Origin: a virus
Lineage: Duplodnaviria > Caudoviricetes
IMG/VR virus record: IMGVR_UViG_3300036798_000553
Location: 1-47,393 of that record
Length of the DNA: 47,393 nt
Strand: one strand, 5' to 3'
The first letter of the stretch is position 1; every line of letters begins with the position of its first letter. Positions 8,785 to 44,337 of this stretch are shown here, piece by piece. Below the pieces are notes generated by a model. It saw only the letters and a list, made by a program, of their open reading frames with translations. It did not search any database and was not told where the DNA came from. Position numbers and translations under genes: made by a program.

Positions 8785-11186
8785 GCTGTCCTCCGGTAGT
8801 TCGCGGTACCCGCGTAGGCGCGCTGCTCCACGCGTGGGGCCGCACGCTTCTGCTTGCGCTTCGGGTCCTTGTAGAGGAAGAAGTGGCACCCTGTGGACGC
8901 CGCGTCGACAGTGTCGTCGTTGGCGGTCTGGGGGTAGGCCAACTGCTCCTCCTCCAGGGGGACGAACTTGTCGGCGTGCACCACGCGCGGGTCGAGGTGC
9001 TTGTAGTAGCCGGCCAGCCTCGCGATGCGGGTGTCCTTGGGCTCGGACTGGGTTTTGACTTGGACGTGTACCGGCAGCTCCAGGAACGGGTCGGAAACGA
9101 AGTCGTGGCCCTGGTTGGTTTCGATGAGAATGGTGTCGATCTCGGGAAACCGCTCCAGAATGGATAGTACGTAGAGCTTCAGCTTGTGCGGCCGCATTTT
9201 CACGCGGTTGGCCCAGGCGACCTCGCACCGTGGGTGCGGCCCCGGTGGTAGCAGCTCGTCCGGCGCCGTGGGTGCGGATATGGATTCCGGCGGGGAAAGG
9301 GAAGCGCCCCAGCTCTGGTTGCCCGGAGTGCCGTTGTCGCGGCGCTGCTGGTGCCGCTGCCGGGCGGCCGTATCCCGATCCGTGAACGTGGGGTCGAAGA
9401 GGCTGCCCGCTGTGTCGCGGGCGCCGGGTGGAGCGCTGGTGGGTCGCGAGCGCCGGGTGCTGGTCGCGGCCAACAGGTGGGCGGGGATGAACTGGCGCAG
9501 GTCGGCGTAGAAGGCCTCGCGCTGGGCCTGTGAGGCACCGGGGGGCAGGCGGCGGCCCCGGCGGGCGGCCGCGCGGCGCAGGAACTCCTCGGCGGTACGG
9601 GGCTCGCCCTGGACGCTGCTCTCGGCCGGCACCCGCGAGTAGAGAAGGGCGCTGTCTCGCGGGTGCCGGCCGAGAGCAGCGGTGGACAGCCGTTGGGCTA
9701 CCTCCTCGAAGGCCGCCTCCGGGTTGGCCGGCTGGTAGCGGATCACGGCCAGGCCGGTGTAGTCAGAGGTGGCCGTTGCCGTTACCGCCGGGTCGATGGA
9801 CAGGATGGTGCGGGTGCAGCCGGCCAGGCGGGTGTAGGTGATGTCGCCGGATTCCCAGAAGTCCCCGTCGCCGACCGGATTGTTCTGCATATTTTTCATA
9901 AAGTCGTTGGTGCCCAGGCGGGGACGCAGTTCTTCTACCGGCCACTTTTCCGGCCACAGAGAGACGAGCTCTCCATCGGAGGGATTGATGGAGAGCGCGG
10001 GATAGTAGTGCCCCCGGAAGTTCTGCTCCCTGATCCAGTCGGCCACCAGGGCGCCGTAGCGATGTGGGTTGGTGGGAGTGGGGTGCTCGGGGGCGGTACC
10101 GGGGTTCAGCACGGACTGCACCATGTCGTGCATGATCGACCCGGCCATCGTGACGGTGCCGACCATCACCACCCGGGCGAACTCGTTCAGGTAGAGGATC
10201 TTGTCGCGCAGCCGGTTGACGCCCTTGAGCTTCATCGCGGTGGAGTATTTGTCCTCGGACGGCTCGATGTCGTCACATACGATCAGGCTCGGCCGCTCGT
10301 TGGAGCTGTTGACCAGACCGACAATCTTCCCGTCGATGGTATGCGCCTCGAAGGTGAAGCCGGACTCGGCCACGTAGGCGTTCTTATTGTCGTTGACCGC
10401 GTTTCCATTCGCCCTGCGCGCTGGCGTGCACAGTTCGGGGAAATCCTCGCGCAGGGCGGCGTTGTTGTCGATGTTGTCATGGAACTTCGCCAAGTGCTTC
10501 TGCACCTGGTCATCCGAATCCGAGAACGCCGCGATGAAGCGCTGGTGGCCGTGCGCCGCCGCCCACAGTGGGAGGATGGTAAATACCAGGGTACTTTTCC
10601 CAGCCCCGCGAGGGGCGATGTAGCAATCGCGGTCCTGGCGGGTGGTGCTGGCCGGGAACGCCCATTCTTCGCCGGCAATGAACAGGTCCACATGGAACTG
10701 GCAGAGCGTGATGCCGCCGTGTGAATCGGGAATACCGCTGCGGGTGAGCGCGTTCGGTGAGTCCAGCACCAGGTAGTGCGGGACGTAGAGCAGCGCCCAG
10801 AGGAACGGGTCGTAGCGGGTGGCCTCCCGGCGGCCGGCGGTCGAATCCAGCGCCCCGGAGGCGTACAGGCGCCTGAGCAGGCGGAACTTCTGCTTCAGGA
10901 AGGCTCTCGGGGTCGGATTGCCGCTGCCGGTGAGGCTCAGGCGGGGGGCGCCCCCGTCCTTGAGCAGCGGATTCGCGCGGGTGGTGGTGATGGGCGCAGC
11001 GGGTGCGTAGGGCGGCTGGGCCTGCCTGGGCGCTGCGGGGCGGTCTGGCTGCGGATGTGAGGAGGCGGAGCCGCTGGTGGTACGCCGGCGGCCGGTGTGG
11101 CCCGAGGAGGACACCTGGGCCGGGGGTGCGGGAGATTCCGCGCCGCGCCGCCGCGCCCGCCGGTCGGCCAGGCGAGTGGGTCGCAT
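8781..11186 (-). CDS. terL: terminase large subunit
   Basis: Walker A IAPRGAGKST, Walker B LIVCDD, MVGT, nuclease SIDPA...DYTG, IETNQG, NDDTVDA; start position uncertain. Confidence 0.92.
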   Translation of the reverse strand: MRPTRLADRRARRRGAESPAPPAQVSSSGHTGRRRTTSGSASSHPQPDRPAAPRQAQPPYAPAAPITTTRANPLLKDGGAPRLSLTGSGNPTPRAFLKQKFRLLRRLYASGALDSTAGRREATRYDPFLWALLYVPHYLVLDSPNALTRSGIPDSHGGITLCQFHVDLFIAGEEWAFPASTTRQDRDCYIAPRGAGKSTLVFTILPLWAAAHGHQRFIAAFSDSDDQVQKHLAKFHDNIDNNAALREDFPELCTPARRANGNAVNDNKNAYVAESGFTFEAHTIDGKIVGLVNSSNERPSLIVCDDIEPSEDKYSTAMKLKGVNRLRDKILYLNEFARVVMVGTVTMAGSIMHDMVQSVLNPGTAPEHPTPTNPHRYGALVADWIREQNFRGHYYPALSINPSDGELVSLWPEKWPVEELRPRLGTNDFMKNMQNNPVGDGDFWESGDITYTRLAGCTRTILSIDPAVTATATSDYTGLAVIRYQPANPEAAFEEVAQRLSTAALGRHPRDSALLYSRVPAESSVQGEPRTAEEFLRRAAARRGRRLPPGASQAQREAFYADLRQFIPAHLLAATSTRRSRPTSAPPGARDTAGSLFDPTFTDRDTAARQRHQQRRDNGTPGNQSWGASLSPPESISAPTAPDELLPPGPHPRCEVAWANRVKMRPHKLKLYVLSILERFPEIDTILIETNQGHDFVSDPFLELPVHVQVKTQSEPKDTRIARLAGYYKHLDPRVVHADKFVPLEEEQLAYPQTANDDTVDAASTGCHFFLYKDPKRKQKRAAPRVEQRAYAGTANYRRTA

Positions 11187-35579: not shown

Positions 35580-35969
35580 ATGACCACCACCGAAGACCTC
35601 CCCACGATCACCGTCGACGGCCGTACGAAGCTGGGCTGGATGCTCAGCACGTACGACGAGCTGTACGAGGTAAAAACCGTTCTCCGCAAGGAACTCGAAA
35701 CCGCCGATCAACAGCTCACCGCGCTGGTCGACGAAATCAAGCTCGAAGCCGCCAAGAACGGCATTGCCGACGCGAACCTCGACAGCACCAAACTGGCCTA
35801 CGTCCTGCGCCTGCGCACCACTCCCCAGCGCCGCATGACCGAGGCCGACCTGAAACGCTTCCGCGCCGACCACCCGAACCTGTGGCTGGCCTATAGCACC
35901 GAGAAGGTCGTCCACACCCTCCGCAGGCTGACCGGCGCTCAGTGGCGCAAGCCGAAGGCCGGTGCGTAA
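35580..35969 (+). CDS. hypothetical protein
   Basis: GGAG RBS, coiled coil, DLKRFRADHPNLW. Confidence 0.7.
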   Translation: MTTTEDLPTITVDGRTKLGWMLSTYDELYEVKTVLRKELETADQQLTALVDEIKLEAAKNGIADANLDSTKLAYVLRLRTTPQRRMTEADLKRFRADHPNLWLAYSTEKVVHTLRRLTGAQWRKPKAGA

Positions 35970-36389
35970 TGCCCATCCGCTGCGGGCACTGCAGGAACTA
36001 CCACGAGACAGTCGAGGCGGTGCGGGTCTGTTCCCGTGCACCGGGGCCGGTAACGACCACCACCGTCGAGCCGATCACCGAGGGCGTCTACCAGCACCCC
36101 GACGGCCTAATCTTCAAGGTCCAGACCAGTCGAGAGTCCGGACGTCTCTACGCCAAGATATTCTGCGACGTGCCCGGCGACAAGCCCAGGTTCGTTTTCC
36201 CCCGGTGCCTTGCGCGCCATCAAGGCCGAGTACCGTATGACCGCCGAGCAGGCCTCCGCATTCGGTGCGCTCTACGGGGTCTGCTGCAACTGCTTCCGCG
36301 AACTCACCCGCGAGGAGTCAATGCGCCGGGGTTACGGGCCAACGTGTGCGGAGAAGAACGCTTGGCCCTACGACCACGGAGCAGACTGA
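35969..36389 (+). pseudogene. frameshifted DUF6011-like Zn-finger protein
   Basis: frame 0 reads EGVY...KVQTSRESGRLYAK; the +1 frame from ~36201 reads PGAL...CCNCFRELTREESMRRGYGPTCA. Confidence 0.65.
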
Positions 36390-36493
36390 TGAGATGTCGA
36401 TGCGGCTATGACGCCAAAGGCGAACTCGATCTGGAAGAACATGTCCTGGCTATGATGCACGTCGACGACGGATCAAGCCACGGAGCGGACTGA
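36389..36493 (+). CDS. small putative Zn-binding peptide
   Basis: GGAG RBS, TGATG coupling, CRC...H...H. Confidence 0.45.
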   Translation: MRCRCGYDAKGELDLEEHVLAMMHVDDGSSHGAD

Positions 36494-36588
36494 CAGACCA
36501 TCCGAATAGCAGTAAATCGGTAGGGGAAGATGCCGGCGCGGGTTGGTGAGACCTGCGCTGGCACCCCACAACGGAAGAAAGAGTGCTG

Positions 36589-36693
36589 ATGCCCAACAAT
36601 GTCGACGGCGACGCGGGATTCGGAACCTTCTGTCTGCTGCGCGTCTTCGCGTTCATCGCGGCGACCGTGGCCCTGGCCGTAGCTTTCACCTGA
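36589..36693 (+). CDS. small membrane peptide
   Basis: MPNNVDG...LLRVFAFIAATVALAVAFT. Confidence 0.4.
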   Translation: MPNNVDGDAGFGTFCLLRVFAFIAATVALAVAFT

Positions 36694-36762
36694 ATCATTA
36701 ATGCGTTCGTCCGGAGATCAACACCAGCCAACACTCCCCCGTCGGCTACTCCGGGCGCGTGG

Positions 36763-36827
36763 CCCGCGGAGCCTGTTTCTCCTCCCCCGAGGACAGGCTG
36801 TCTGGAGCTTCGAAACTCCCTGCGGGA
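36763..36827 (+). ncRNA. D-armless tRNA-like element
   Basis: CCCGCGG/CTGCGGG acceptor-like stem, GCCTGT/ACAGGC stem, GGAG-CTTCGAAA-CTCC T-arm-like hairpin. Confidence 0.35.
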
Positions 36828-36922
36828 CGAGGGCAGCGGTGGCTTCCTGCCGGATGACGCCGGTTATAAGGTCGCCCGAAGCGCAGTCTGTTGGCCAGTC
36901 TTGTCACAGGGCTGGAGGCTGC

Positions 36923-37204
36923 GTGAAGTTCCGGCCCCATTCGCTCGACGAACTCCACCGGAGCCGCTGCCTCACTCTGTCAGATCGGAGAATTTCTGTG
37001 GAAAAAGAAGGTTATCGAGGCGTTCCACTCCCGTCGGACTGGATCTACTACGGGTACGAGCAACGCAACGCATGGCACGGAGGTGTCGACGCCGCGCTCG
37101 CCGCCTGTACGCCGAGTGTCGAGGTTCGCAACAGTGTCGGCACCACCGCACCGGGCGCGACGGTGATTCAGGCCGGGAACATCGACAACGGCATCAGATT
37201 CTGA
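36923..37204 (+). CDS. hypothetical protein
   Basis: GGAGG RBS, GTG start. Confidence 0.5.
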   Translation: MKFRPHSLDELHRSRCLTLSDRRISVEKEGYRGVPLPSDWIYYGYEQRNAWHGGVDAALAACTPSVEVRNSVGTTAPGATVIQAGNIDNGIRF

Positions 37205-37212
37205 AAGGAGGT

Positions 37213-37764
37213 GGCTGTATCGAGCGCTCGTTCCTGACGTACTCGCCTGTTAGGTTGTAACTCGACATCCGCAGCACGAGTGGGTGTCGAGCTATCCGAA
37301 CAGGAAAGTGTTGGTAACTGTCAACCTCATCAACCTCATCAGGGTCAACAACCCAACTGGACACCGTACGGTGAAGTGCCCCTCCAAGCGTTAGGGGCAA
37401 GGAACCCAGTCCCGTTCGAGTCGGGCTACGGTGGCGGAAGCGGAAGGTCTCGTCGAGATACGCAAGTAGGCCCAGGAGAATCCGTCCTGAACGGTGTTAA
37501 GTCAAGGTCGAAAGTCCTCGCGGTAAGGCTACGCTTCAAGAATGGAGAGTGCTCAGGAGTCCGGAGGATTGCCAGAGGTGTTCGGGATGACATTTTGGCA
37601 ATCCACAAGGTAACTGAGGTCGTGTTGATCAGACCCGTCGAACGCCGAAGGACCGCGGAACGGCGGCCGGCGGTGAACTGCGGGCGACCTTTGCAACCGG
37701 AGGAAGGCCGGTCGCTCTCCAAACGCAGCCGGACGCGCAGTTGCTCGCGCTCCGCGCGTCCGGC
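37213..37764 (+). ncRNA. candidate large structured ncRNA
   Basis: no credible CDS; many stems (see findings); abuts tRNA-Arg. Confidence 0.55.
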
Positions 37765-37768
37765 ACTC

Positions 37769-37840
37769 GCCGCACTAGCTCAACGGACAGAGCTTCGGTC
37801 TACGGAACCGAGCGTCGAGGTTCGATTCCTCGGTGTGGCA
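37769..37840 (+). tRNA. tRNA-Arg (ACG)
   Basis: GCCGCAC/GTGTGGC acceptor, TCGGT-CTACGGA-ACCGA anticodon arm, CGAGG-TTCGATT-CCTCG T arm; no encoded CCA. Confidence 0.9.
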
Positions 37841-37858
37841 CTGAAAGGGGGCTGTTTC

Positions 37859-38047
37859 ATGCCAGAAAGAATGCCTCCGGTGGTCCTTCCGGATCGCTAT
37901 CAAACCGAGTCCGAACCAGTTTACAACGAACGCGTGTACCGATGGAGATGTTGGCTGGCGACAGAGCCCCGGCCGTTTCTGTGGTACGCTTCCGAGAATG
38001 AAGTTAAGGCCTATAAGAACTGGACTACCAGCAACCCAATACTTTAG
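37859..38047 (+). CDS. small hypothetical protein
   Basis: AAGGGGG RBS-like site, 62 aa. Confidence 0.45.
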   Translation: MPERMPPVVLPDRYQTESEPVYNERVYRWRCWLATEPRPFLWYASENEVKAYKNWTTSNPIL

Positions 38048-38049
38048 GG

Positions 38050-38495
38050 GTCCGGGGCCACGCCGGATGCCTGGGCTCCCCAGATACAGCCCGAACGGCC
38101 AGCACTGCACGCGGGAAACGTGCTTCGAGCGGCAGCCCACATTTCAGTATGGGTACAGTGGCACGCACCGCCGTTCGTACATGGACCGGACGGCGGTGCC
38201 CAACTTGTCCTGCGCCAGACCGGACAGCCGACTCGTGCGCAGCGCGGGTACGGCGAAGCGGAAGAACTACCTACAGCGAACTAGGAAGGTCCCGACGCAG
38301 TCGAGGTTGTTCGCCCTCGACATCTGGCTCTTAAAGTTCCGAGGTGCGTGAACGCATATCGGGATATCCGGGAGGAGACGAGTAGCGCCGTTTCGGGCTT
38401 CAGTGCCCACTCGCATAAGCGTGCACCCGGTGAGGCTGCTTGAGGAGGCGTCATCAGGAGCAATCCTCCTGACTCAGCCAAAGATTCAAGCAGCC
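38050..38495 (+). ncRNA. second hairpin-rich non-coding region
   Basis: serial stems, the last GGCTGCTTGA/TCAAGCAGCC ending 2 nt before tRNA-Lys. Confidence 0.45.
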
Positions 38496-38497
38496 GA

Positions 38498-38570
38498 CTC
38501 TCGCTAGCTCAGTAGGCAGAGCAGCCGACTTTTAATCGGCGGGTCGCTGGTTCGAGCCCAGCGCGGGAGA
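38498..38570 (+). tRNA. tRNA-Lys (TTT)
   Basis: CTCTCGC/GCGGGAG acceptor, GCCGA-CTTTTAA-TCGGC anticodon arm, GCTGG-TTCGAGC-CCAGC T arm; no encoded CCA. Confidence 0.92.
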
Positions 38571-38593
38571 CGTGTCCGAACGAGAGGAAGGGC

Positions 38594-39121
38594 ATGGATG
38601 AAGTAGCACAGTTACGTCAGTTCGCGCTGAGTGAAGCGGTCAAGCTCCACAAGGACCGTGAGTTCACCGGAACACACACGGCCGCCGGCCAGGTTGTCGC
38701 GGCGGCCGAGAAGTTCTTCGGGTTCCTGAACGAAGCGGCGCCGACCGCTCGCTTGGCTTTCTCCATCGTCCTGATCACCGACCAGGCCACCGGCAGTCCC
38801 AGCCCCCACCAGTACAGCGGAGGAATTCCTACCATGCTCGACACCGAACAGTTGGTCATCGCGGTCCAGGCCGAGGACAGCAAGGGTGCCCCCACGTCGG
38901 ACTCGCTGACCTGGAGCGCCCCCGGCGACGTGACCGGCGCCGTCCTCACGCCCTCGGCGGACACCATGTCCTGCACGGTCGCTGCCGGCACGCCGGGTAT
39001 CGTCCCGGTCCAGGCCGTCGACCCCAACGGTGTGACCGGCCTGTCGCCGGTGACCGTCACTGCGGGTGCGGCCACCCAGCTCGTCCTCACCCAGGGCACC
39101 CCGACCCCCCAGGGCGCCTGA
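38594..39121 (+). CDS. hypothetical protein with an Ig-like C-terminal domain (internal start 38834)
   Basis: beta-rich T/V/G/P C-terminal half, LTWS, VTVTAGAATQL. Confidence 0.65.
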   Translation: MDEVAQLRQFALSEAVKLHKDREFTGTHTAAGQVVAAAEKFFGFLNEAAPTARLAFSIVLITDQATGSPSPHQYSGGIPTMLDTEQLVIAVQAEDSKGAPTSDSLTWSAPGDVTGAVLTPSADTMSCTVAAGTPGIVPVQAVDPNGVTGLSPVTVTAGAATQLVLTQGTPTPQGA

Positions 39122-39210
39122 GCCGGTCGCCGCGCGACCAGTGAGCCGGTCGCGCGGCAGCGGTGGGCTATTTCGAATCCTGGTGTCCCAGCAAGGAAAG
39201 GAAGCCTTCG

Positions 39211-39399: not shown

Positions 39400-39507
39400 A
39401 AACCCCTTGCGCCCTACTAGGACCTCGGGTAGAGTTCCACTTGTAAGTCTGGACGCCGCCTCTGCGCCTCTGCGCCTCGCATGCGGCACCGGACACGGCT
39501 TAGCTTC

Positions 39508-39577
39508 GGTTCCGCTGTCTTGCTGCTGGGGTTCCTTCTTCGGTGAATAACACCTCGGCGCACTTTTTCTCGGAACC
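39508..39577 (+). ncRNA. short Y-RNA-like unit 1
   Basis: GGTTCCG/CGGAACC terminal stem with CCGCTGTC and TTTTCTCGG motifs. Confidence 0.6.
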
Positions 39578-39594
39578 CAATAACTCAATAAGTT

Positions 39595-39755
39595 GTTCCC
39601 GCTGTCTTGGACTAGGGATACTTCAACTGAAATCGTGTGTTGCGGGTTCGAACCCCGCCGCTGGGCGTACCTTCGGATGGCCCGGCGTAGCTCAATTGGC
39701 AGAGCAACGGCCTGAATCGGCGCAAGCCGGCCTTCGTCCGATTTTTCTCGGGAAC
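39595..39755 (+). ncRNA. yrlA: YrlA-type Y RNA (tRNA mimic)
   Basis: GTTCCCG/CGGGAAC terminal stem; permuted tRNA domain with the T arm (GCGGG-TTCGAAC-CCCGC) before an acceptor-like stem and D arm (TAGCTCAATTGGCAGAGC); adjacent to the Ro gene. Confidence 0.85.
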
Positions 39756-39765
39756 TCAGCTTCAG

Positions 39766-39840
39766 GAGTCCGCTGTCCAGGTTGGGGTTACTTCCACTTC
39801 TAATGGGTTTTGTCGCCTCGATCGCCCTTTTCTCGGACTC
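39766..39840 (+). ncRNA. short Y-RNA-like unit 3
   Basis: GAGTCCG/CGGACTC terminal stem with the same motifs. Confidence 0.6.
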
Positions 39841-39880
39841 GCGCTGAGTCCCCTCCAACCGCCCAGGAGGGATCGATCGC

Positions 39881-41488
39881 ATGAGTAAGTTCAATAAGCC
39901 CGGCTCGCGTCCGTCGAGTGAGTCGCCGGTGTACGCCGAGTCGACGCCATCTGGGCGAACCGCGCTGGGAGCGCCGGGTTACGCGCGAGACGCGCAGTCC
40001 GAGCTGTTTTTGCTGGGGGTAACGAATTTAGTTACCGAAGACGCGTTCCACGAGTCCGCCGCGCAGCGCGATAGCCGGTTCGCCGAGCTGGTGCGGATCG
40101 TGGCCCCGGTCGAGCCGGACTGGACACGCCGTTTCATCCGCTGGCTTCGGCACGATGTGGGTATGCGCTCGGCGCCGTTGGTGCTGGCCAACCACGCGGT
40201 CAACTCGGCGCTTCCGGAGGGTCTTTCCGGTCGGCATTTCGTCAGCGCCGCATTGGACCGGGCCGAGGAGCCGGGCGAGGCGCTGGCGTACTGGCAGCAG
40301 GCTTGGGGGCGGAAGATGGCAATCTCCTGGCGGCGCGGCGTCGCCGATGCGGCCACTCGGCTCTACACCCAGCGGTCGCTGCTGAAGTGGGATTCGCCGG
40401 ACAAGCCGATGCGCTTCGGCAAGGTCATCGAGCTGACGCACCCGACGCCGCGGGACGCTGAGCAGGCCGCGCTGTTCCGCTACGCGATGGATCGGCGGTT
40501 CAAGGGCAACGACGCGGATATCCCGCGCGAGCTGGAGATTGTGCACTACCACCAGAAGCTCATGGGCTGGCCGGTGGCGAAGCGTCGGGCGCTGTTCGAC
40601 AAGCCGGGCGCAGCCGACAAGCTCTGGCGGGCCGGCATGACGTGGGAGAAGGTCTCGGGCTGGCTCCAGGGTCCGCTGGACGCCACCGTCTGGGAAGCGT
40701 TGATTCCGGTGATGGGCTACGCAGCCCTGCTGCGGAACCTGCGCAACTTCGACCAGGCCGGCGTGCGGGACGAGGTGGCCGAGCTGGTGCAGGCGCGGCT
40801 GGCCGATCCCGTGGAGGTGCTGCGGGCGCGGCAGTTTCCGATGGCTTACCTCTCGGCCTACCGGGCGACGTCGGACTCGCTGCGCTGGGGCCACGCCCTG
40901 GAAAAGGCGCTGGGCCTGTCCCTGGCCAACATCCCCGAGTTGACCGGCCGCACGTTGATCCTGGTCGACACCAGCACCAGCATGCGCGATGGTTTCAGCA
41001 AGGACGGCACGGTTAAGCGCTGGGATGCGGCGGTGGTCTTCGCTCTCGCCCTGGCCTCGCGGTGCGCACAAGCCGACGTGGTGTCCTTCTCCTCCAACGC
41101 TCGGTACATGGGAGACCCGCCTGGTGCGAACACCAAGCATTTCGTCTCGCGCCCCGGCGAATCTCTGCTACGCGGCATCGAACGCTGGGACAAGGGAGGC
41201 TACTTCCTGGAAGGCGGAACGGCCACCGGCGAGGCGGTGCGCAAGCACTTCCATGCCGAAGACCACAAGCGCGTGGTCATTCTCACCGACGGCCAGTACC
41301 GGGGCATCAACCCGCACGAGCAGCTTCCGCGGAGCACGCCGCTCTACACCTGGAACATAGCCGGCTACCAGTACGGCCACGCGCCGGCCGGCGGCCACAA
41401 CCGGCACGAGCTCGGCGGCCTGACCGACCGGGGCTTCGAGATGATCCCGCTTCTGGAACGCGGCCAGGACACCGACTGGCCGTTCTGA
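39881..41488 (+). CDS. rsr: Ro60-like TROVE plus vWA RNA-binding protein
   Basis: MSKFN, SELFLL, GMRS, TWE, MGYAALLRNLRN, RQFP, LILVDTSTSM, GGT, ILTD. Confidence 0.93.
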   Translation: MSKFNKPGSRPSSESPVYAESTPSGRTALGAPGYARDAQSELFLLGVTNLVTEDAFHESAAQRDSRFAELVRIVAPVEPDWTRRFIRWLRHDVGMRSAPLVLANHAVNSALPEGLSGRHFVSAALDRAEEPGEALAYWQQAWGRKMAISWRRGVADAATRLYTQRSLLKWDSPDKPMRFGKVIELTHPTPRDAEQAALFRYAMDRRFKGNDADIPRELEIVHYHQKLMGWPVAKRRALFDKPGAADKLWRAGMTWEKVSGWLQGPLDATVWEALIPVMGYAALLRNLRNFDQAGVRDEVAELVQARLADPVEVLRARQFPMAYLSAYRATSDSLRWGHALEKALGLSLANIPELTGRTLILVDTSTSMRDGFSKDGTVKRWDAAVVFALALASRCAQADVVSFSSNARYMGDPPGANTKHFVSRPGESLLRGIERWDKGGYFLEGGTATGEAVRKHFHAEDHKRVVILTDGQYRGINPHEQLPRSTPLYTWNIAGYQYGHAPAGGHNRHELGGLTDRGFEMIPLLERGQDTDWPF

Positions 41489-43421: not shown

Positions 43422-43537
43422 AACTCATCATCTCCCTCGTGGTCTTCGCGGTAATTCTTCTCGGTCTCGCTCTCCTGTTTCCGCACCAGGGCAACGAGGT
43501 CATCAACTGGATCGTCAACAGGGCGAAGGGACATTGA
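43418..43537 (+). CDS. small TM peptide
   Basis: LIISLVVFAVILLGLALLF; GTGA coupling. Confidence 0.5.
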   Translation: MKLIISLVVFAVILLGLALLFPHQGNEVINWIVNRAKGH

Positions 43538-44337
43538 TGGACACGAAGCGAGCGATTGCCGACCAGCACACGATCCTGCGGACGCAGGTCGGCTCGGGAC
43601 TGCACGGGACGGCGATCTCCGGGCAGGACGACCGCGACGAGATGGGGATCTGCGTCGAGCCGCCGGAATACGTGCTCGGGCTGGAGCGGTTCGACCAGTA
43701 CGAGTTCCGCTCCCAGCCGACGGGCGTGCGGTCCGGTCCGGGCGACCTTGACTTGGTCGTCTATGGATTGAAAAAATGGATGCGCTTGGCCGTCGCCGGC
43801 AATCCAACCATCATCCTGCCGCTGTTCGCGCCGGAGTCGGAGGTGCTGGTCAACACACCCTACGGCGAGCGCCTGCGCCAGCAGGTGCCGACGCTGCTCT
43901 CGCGCCAGTGCGCGGACCGCTACCGCGGCTACCTGGAGAGCCAGCGCGCCCGGCTGATGGGCTTGAAGTCCACTGGCACCAATCGGCCTGAACTGATCGA
44001 GCTGTACGGTTTTGACACGAAGTACGCCATGCATATGGTCCGTCTGGGCATCCAGGGTATCGAGCTGCTGACCACCGGCCGCATCACGCTGCCCGTCCCC
44101 GCGCCTCACCTGACGCTGTTGCGTGACATTCGCGTCGGCAAGCTGACTATGCAGGAAACCCTGGTGATCGCCGATGAATTCGACGCCGAGCTGCTGCGCC
44201 TGCGCACTGAATCGCCGCTGCCCGAGGAAGTGGACCGAGCCAAGACCAACGAACTGTTGATCGAGATCTACGAAGCAGCGTGGCACACCAAGCCGGACCC
44301 CATTGTATTTCCGCTCAGTGCGGACTGGCCCTACTGA
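43537..44337 (+). CDS. Pol-beta-superfamily nucleotidyltransferase (RlaP/YcgL-like)
   Basis: VGSGLHG, DDRDEMG, GNPT, GFDTKYAMHMVRL. Confidence 0.85.
   Translation: MDTKRAIADQHTILRTQVGSGLHGTAISGQDDRDEMGICVEPPEYVLGLERFDQYEFRSQPTGVRSGPGDLDLVVYGLKKWMRLAVAGNPTIILPLFAPESEVLVNTPYGERLRQQVPTLLSRQCADRYRGYLESQRARLMGLKSTGTNRPELIELYGFDTKYAMHMVRLGIQGIELLTTGRITLPVPAPHLTLLRDIRVGKLTMQETLVIADEFDAELLRLRTESPLPEEVDRAKTNELLIEIYEAAWHTKPDPIVFPLSADWPY

Follow-up and report, generated by a model that had tools for sequence, protein, structure and literature searches.

A folded, protein-poor stretch beside a phage tRNA gene

The window analysed here is a virus record of 47,393 nt, with a completeness of about 70%, whose genes include an HK97-type capsid, a portal, a D5 primase, an Rv2525c-like lysin, DUF397 and an SNF2 helicase, and which is likely a soil phage of actinobacteria. 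The closest named relatives of its Ro60 protein come mostly from Amycolatopsis and Saccharothrix, so a member of the Pseudonocardiaceae is the likely host. Among sequencing runs, the single one with window DNA is a soil metagenome, probably its source; a contig from this run covering 35641–39208 is identical to the window, with no differences, and none of the runs listed is an RNA sequencing run with window DNA.

The locus of interest consists, in order, of a 68-aa ORF (36998–37204, plus strand) that has no relative among phage records, the candidate RNA immediately 3′ of it, an adjoining tRNA-Arg(ACG) gene (37769–37841, plus strand), a 62-aa ORF (37859–38047, plus strand) with a weak relative in Gordonia phages (E 1e-3), a second folded stretch and a tRNA-Lys(TTT) gene. 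Between 36390 and 38593 no ORF carries the phage's usual codon signature. Further downstream lie the Ro60/TROVE gene (39881–41488), preceded by a YrlA-like RNA (39634–39709; 33.6 bits in Rfam, below the gathering score), and a gene for RlaP (43534–44337), which together with the two tRNAs would make up an RNA-protection neighbourhood. Phage G001 (83,959 nt), whose capsid is 82% identical, is syntenic at the RNA locus.

Several other features surround the locus. The stretch 39400–39880 ahead of Ro60 contains a repeated TTTTTCTCGG motif along with the YrlA-like RNA and is partly conserved in G001, which suggests that several Y RNAs are encoded there. At 35966–36389, a frameshift near 36200 appears to divide in two what is a single gene in relatives; each half has a match in G001 and in record L083, and the source contig has the same letters. 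In the intergenic, hairpin-rich stretch 36720–36990, GGCAGCGG can pair with CCGCTGCC to enclose a multibranch element; the z-score there is only −1.18. A near-repeat, TGAAAGG..GGCTGT.TC, occurs at 37202–37221 ahead of the candidate RNA and at 37843–37861 ahead of the 62-aa ORF, and an ATG follows only the latter copy.

The second folded stretch (38045–38497) is protein-poor and runs into tRNA-Lys, ending in an 11-bp hairpin 2 nt before that gene; with a z-score of −4.27 (0/100) and no Rfam, phage or genome match, it is a candidate second large ncRNA, and a 117-codon frame (37998–38351, GC3 0.74) overlaps it. It shares short, non-significant blocks with the first RNA, and paralogy between the two was rejected for now (local alignment 122/1000, chained blocks 20 and 40/300).

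Extent and folding of the candidate RNA

The candidate structured ncRNA of about 560 nt occupies 37205–37764 on the plus strand, its predicted ends lying between the stop of the small ORF (37204) and tRNA-Arg (37769). An earlier note on this DNA had placed a candidate large ncRNA of ~520–550 nt at 37213–37764; its limits are better drawn at 37205 and 37764. The region is indeed more A-rich than coding sequence (A content 0.223, against 0.169 in three CDSs) and, as that note proposed, non-coding. The open frame that crosses it (37280–38047, 255 codons) runs through tRNA-Arg with a GC3 of 0.58 versus about 0.85, and its translation, taken across the region as a frame of 162–193 aa, gave no Pfam match, no relative among 965 candidates or 1.84 billion representatives, and none in scans of metagenomes and genomes.

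Folding of the region as a whole is weak (z −1.92, 3/100 shuffles), the signal being concentrated at 37240–37310 (z −5.75) and 37540–37725 (z −3.62), each reached by 0/100 shuffles. Perfect helices of at least 10 bp number four, compared with 0.25±0.46 in shuffles (0/200 reach this), and of ten coding controls, one of them truncated, nine contain none and one has two. Among the region's four, 37662/37716 cannot coexist with the preferred fold (p 0.0). With the minimum lowered to 7 bp there is no enrichment (9 helices versus 8.1 in shuffles, 90/200).

Every motif named earlier lies at or near the place described: CTCGACATCC at 37261 with GGGTGTCGAG at 37282, nested in CCTGTT (37246)/AACAGG (37299); TGCCCCT (37377)/AGGGGCA (37393); CAGGA (37473)/TCCTG (37485); GGATTGCCA (37566)/TGGCAATCC (37596); the tandem repeat TCAACCTCA at 37321 and 37330; and the final hairpin GCCGGACGCGC at 37728. 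The sequences GCGACC (37684) and GGTCGC (37710) are likewise found, but their pairing competes with a hairpin at 37696–37712, the one that G001 keeps. The proposed closing helix GGCTGT (37213)/GCAGCC (37725) is disfavoured: its letters are at the site, but the pairing 37213/37730 has a probability near 0, shares 3 nt with the 11-bp terminal hairpin and, if forced, carries a penalty of 9 kcal/mol. In the predicted layout, an orphan Shine-Dalgarno run (37205) opens the 5′ part, the helix 37543/37721 closes a domain, and the 11-bp hairpin follows. No promoter was found, and no U-tract terminator was called at the terminal hairpin. The candidate is probably a real structured RNA.

Modules of the candidate RNA

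The Shine-Dalgarno-like run AAGGAGGUG (37205–37216, plus strand) is strong and has no usable start codon behind it; it is predicted to pair with 37527–37537, the pair probability of 0.94 for 37211/37532 being a one-sequence prediction not confirmed by comparison. The 5′ module (37233–37304, plus strand) follows, with CCUGACGUA, a long hairpin (12-bp core 37261–37291 inside CCUGUU/AACAGG) and UCCGA, and leads into an A/C-rich, weakly folded linker (37305–37361, plus strand) that holds the tandem TCAACCTCA, has no equivalent in G001, and overlaps a possible TTG-start mini-ORF of 27 codons (37311–37394).

Absent from the earlier note is a tRNA-like domain (37362–37433, plus strand), which resembles the top half of a tRNA without a D arm. 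In it, a 7-bp Watson-Crick acceptor stem, which has no CCA, forms a stack with a T-arm whose loop reads UUCGAGU; the two are separated by an 8-nt D region (GG, without a stem) and by an arm of 7 bp that carries a 9-nt loop. A search for the top-half pattern through the 47 kb on both strands returned three matches, this domain and two true tRNAs, and 0/5000 shuffles contained one. As a tRNA it departs from the norm in its absent D stem and a 9-nt instead of a 7-nt anticodon loop, and neither ARAGORN nor Rfam makes a call at 37362–37433. The tRNA fold is also not the minimum-energy one: the acceptor has a probability of 0.08 versus 0.86 for the rival helix 37360/37498, in which the acceptor 5′ strand pairs with 37491–37498, and the tRNA fold costs 1.9 kcal/mol more, with elbow contacts uncounted.

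The 3′ multibranch domain (37543–37721, plus strand; z −3.62) is closed by UGGAGAGUG/CGCUCUCCA with a probability of 0.94, a helix that the earlier note did not have, and contains a CUCAG arm, two long stems and a 5-bp hairpin with a loop ending in AAGG (37696–37712). The GC-rich terminal hairpin (37728–37764, plus strand; 11 bp, GCCG...CGGC, p 1.0) ends 4 nt 5′ of tRNA-Arg.

A likely counterpart in phage G001

R1, a covariance model of the 3′ domain, matched G001 (L109 7899–8038, minus strand) in an unfiltered search, at 21.4 bits, E 2.6e-4. This E-value is rough and too optimistic, and the score alone carries little weight, since the threshold E<=5 was passed by 50 matches, and 18.9 bits were reached by a stretch on the opposite strand that is unrelated. 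The counterpart built around this match (G001:C1:63854-64199, minus, which matches the candidate's strand) is 346 nt long, has a z-score of −6.65 (0/200 shuffles), and likewise lies between a CCNC-motif gene and YrlA/Ro60.

Outside the part covered by R1, further elements are collinear in the two phages. Upstream, CCUGACGUA recurs in G001, with an 11-bp hairpin and then UCCGA after it, a combination found in 0/2000 shuffled flanks (the 9-mer CCUGACGUA on its own occurs in 67/2000), and a GCCG...CGGC hairpin stands directly after the match (8/2000 shuffles), with six pairs unchanged and five double changes relative to the terminal hairpin of the candidate; the tests of the 5′ module and the terminal hairpin were defined after the sequences had been seen. 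Across four flank-anchored helices, anchored by eye once both sequences were known, 17 of 26 pairs are the same, nine are double changes and none is broken, with two double changes each in the closing helix and the last hairpin of the 3′ domain. This count leaves out 11 pairs in the 5′ hairpin and 7 in the inner long stem, where the register is arbitrary; with those 18 included, the 44 pairs comprise 22 same, 21 double and one single change.

The G001 form has a single long arm whose tip, GGACCGC...GCGGCC, matches the second long stem of the candidate and whose base, CUCAGGA, matches the first, which suggests that this arm may have arisen by deletion or fusion. It contains neither the TCAACCTCA repeat nor the tRNA mimic, has no neighbouring called tRNA, and carries its own 16-codon mini-ORF in the middle, different from the 27-codon one; with R2, a covariance model of the tRNA domain, neither G001's region nor L003 gave a counterpart. 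Since the G001 form does without both, the mimic and the adjacent tRNA would not be essential to the family. Sequence similarity between the two elements is not significant on its own (75 and 46 of 1000 shuffles). We regard the G001 element as probably a true homologue, and the comparison with this single relative supports the 3′ helices and a plan of fixed ends and module order around a variable middle.

Elsewhere in G001, a tRNA-Glu-like gene (L109 11412–11527, minus strand) whose anticodon loop is enlarged by about 40 nt was read by eye, having been missed by ARAGORN and Rfam, and L109 also has more gene-free gaps at 9056–9469 and 9758–10220, the second with several CCAGCCGGGCGG-like repeats.

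Searches for other relatives

Among 50,697 phage records and 72,556 plasmid records, blastn showed no real relative of the candidate RNA, and the G001 form likewise gave nothing real among phages. Further BLAST searches covered 401 genomes in the order of a Mycobacterium genome (six short matches, no relative), 401 genomes in the class of a Streptomyces genome (one short match, no relative), and 27 phage or plasmid records plus five single genomes (no relative). Five motif scans of viral contigs left two empty and three with 72, 25 and 12 loci, all judged to be chance, as were 40 loci from a scan of GTDB. A neighbour-gene scan of metagenomes turned up five loci, at none of which the RNA was matched, and single-sequence covariance models recovered only themselves in 48 records and nothing real in 150 genomes. 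These blanks come from insensitive searches, because BLAST, nhmmer and the filtered model search also missed the G001 element. Collecting homologues, as the earlier note had proposed, has given one likely relative, reached by the unfiltered covariance search only, and two sequences cannot establish covariation. No description of the candidate RNA was found in the literature searched.

In two related phage records, L093 (1900–7800) and L097 (2500–6100), eight to nine T-arm-like hairpins lie between genes, a few hundred nt apart, and no tRNA is called there.

Proposed role and alternative explanations

The idea of a large structured ncRNA next to tRNA-Arg is supported by the non-coding character of the region, long stems beyond chance and a syntenic structural match, minus the closing helix, and of the two options offered earlier, a divergent member of GOLLD or ROOL or a new class, the latter fares better, on the strength of two sequences. 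We somewhat favour a modular ncRNA whose family is uncatalogued, whose ends are conserved and whose middle varies, holding a tRNA-shaped insert here, and that would serve as a decoy or scaffold in an RNA-protection cluster.

The specific role is more tentative: it is possible, though doubtful, that the RNA works as a stable decoy or scaffold within the phage's own cluster. The candidate RNA would be co-transcribed with tRNA-Arg, and RNase P, whose cleavage at the 5′ end of tRNAs is established tRNA processing, would free its 3′ end, which the 11-bp terminal hairpin may shield. The tRNA mimic, lacking CCA and unable to decode, might then offer a tRNA elbow, itself staying uncharged, to host proteins that bind or cut tRNAs. 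This decoy or docking proposal leans on the linker tRNAs of GOLLD and on RNase P-cut YrlA, which are analogies and not tests. A bolder version, in which a new class of scaffold with fixed 5′ and 3′ modules holds a swappable cargo slot, its non-chargeable mimic switching folds, and together with Ro60 and RlaP absorbs or disarms host tRNA-cutting defences, is a long shot.

Among the alternatives, the RNA could be a cis-acting leader or attenuator in which a sequestered Shine-Dalgarno acts with a mini-ORF and a terminal hairpin rich in GC to govern whether the tRNA and genes downstream are reached by read-through. In both elements a Shine-Dalgarno-like run is predicted or able to pair just 5′ of the 3′ domain, the middle holds a mini-ORF (of 27 and 16 codons), and a strong final hairpin stands ahead of downstream genes; the candidate has two mutually exclusive folds 1.9 kcal/mol apart. 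Yet the mini-ORFs are unrelated in sequence and in position relative to the Shine-Dalgarno, the downstream genes differ, the hairpin has no called U-tract terminator, and 560 nt with a closed multibranch domain would exceed what an attenuator needs, so that we consider this improbable.

Also unlikely is a patchwork without a single function, in which the remains of a tRNA gene, hairpins that stabilise mRNA or act as terminators, and spacer DNA share an accessory region that evolves fast, and in which the resemblance to G001 comes from convergence of GC-rich hairpins. The weak global z-score, the lack of enrichment of 7-bp helices, the non-significant sequence similarity to G001, the lack of any other relative in any search, and a tRNA-like part that has lost its D stem and normal anticodon loop all fit such a patchwork. 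Against it, random decay would hardly leave both the 7-bp acceptor and the 7-bp arm with perfect Watson-Crick pairing, three modules are collinear in G001 at the same locus and strand, with nine double changes and none broken among 26 anchored pairs, and the search blanks came from methods that missed G001 itself.

GOLLD and ROOL are large ornate phage RNAs with solved structures, for which we know of no established function. That the candidate is a highly diverged, GC-rich member of either, forming a homo-oligomeric RNA cage, is very unlikely. Its size is near that of ROOL, it has the phage tRNA context and, as in GOLLD, a tRNA-like insert in a variable linker, and it contains self-complementary 10- and 12-mers (such palindromes are common in the window, 61 and 16). 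However, the Rfam search matched no family at E<=10 on a 579-nt region. A divergent ROOL in particular is not supported: there was no match to RF03087 at E<=10, a mode in which the published ROOL of NC_007930, taken from an alignment in the PMC12286853 supplement, scored 130.4 bits; this blank counts because the control was detected, whereas the blank in gathering mode does not, the control being missed there. Inspection by eye did not succeed in arranging ROOL consensus motifs in their order on the candidate RNA. The GOLLD model RF02032 (416 positions, against the 179-nt 3′ domain here) had no match in the region, and it detected no GOLLD in 151 + 5 + 2 control records either; with sizes that do not fit, the G001 form being only about 340 nt, a divergent GOLLD is unlikely. 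Finally, a protein-coding gene on the 255-codon frame or a self-splicing intron is largely refuted: the frame exists, but it crosses a tRNA without the GC3 signature, Pfam match or relatives of a gene, and the group I/II intron and RNase P models of Rfam gave no match (E<=10, run without a positive control), with neither flanking gene interrupted.

A modular ncRNA of a separate family, if borne out, would provide a natural deletion pair in its 340-nt minimal form and 560-nt mimic-bearing form, and the nearby Ro60–Y RNA pair and RNA-repair nucleotidyltransferase are named candidate partners through which the role of such RNAs becomes testable. Should the link to G001 not hold, what is left is one curious tRNA-like element.

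Comparison with known RNA families

Resemblances to motifs of RNase P, of group II domain 5 and of cobalamin riboswitches were considered and dropped. The tRNA-like domain of tmRNA (RF00023) resembles the mimic in its acceptor stem, stemless D-loop, helix, T-arm and possible short reading frame. The candidate differs in that pair 3:70 is C:G, with no G3:U70, no CCA and no consensus of the tRNA-like domain, and in that its acceptor halves enclose only 58 nt; ARAGORN and Rfam found no tmRNA in the candidate and called a tmRNA or an element like its tRNA-like domain in control loci. In Streptomyces phage BRock (L207 15304–15384), an 81-nt element matches the two ends of the tmRNA model at 64.5 bits; it is a stand-alone tRNA-like domain, called a permuted tmRNA by ARAGORN and not in the record's annotation.

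According to PMC4201824, YrlA (RF02553) is a tRNA mimic encoded less than 4 kb from Ro60 on the same strand. Here Ro60 begins at 39881, on the candidate's strand and less than 4 kb from it, and at about 1.1 kb in G001. The 7-bp acceptor-like stem could also serve as an RNase P substrate, PMC4201824 also describing a Mycobacterium smegmatis YrlA with a 7-bp acceptor stem that is cut by RNase P. In YrlA, however, the T-arm precedes a full D-arm, whereas the candidate has the normal tRNA order and no D stem; the candidate is four times longer, and the phage's own YrlA is separate, RF02553 giving no match in the candidate region and only the weak one at 39634–39709.

ROOL (RF03087), as described in PMC5737381 and PMC12286853, shares with the candidate a similar length, the phage and tRNA context and a multibranch fold with an unstructured A/C-rich linker; its average of 581 nt (PMC5737381) compares with about 560 nt here, and an RNA of about 580 nt in a phage or prophage near a tRNA also describes the candidate. 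The 5′ and 3′ parts of ROOL are intertwined, whereas those of the candidate are predicted as separate modules, and the candidate contains a tRNA top half.

GOLLD (RF02032) is longer, at >700–800 nt versus about 560 nt for the candidate and about 340 nt for the G001 form, and its 3′ domain spans about 400 rather than 179 nt, with no common sequence motifs found. The two nevertheless resemble each other as large phage RNAs beside tRNA genes with a conserved 3′ region and a variable linker that can include a tRNA-like part. In GOLLD, according to PMC12286853, PMC6582537 and PMC12990946, a tRNA or pseudo-tRNA can sit in the variable linker, and the candidate has its tRNA top half in the variable middle, a feature not exclusive to GOLLD. 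The candidate, which matched no Rfam family, is GOLLD-like in layout.
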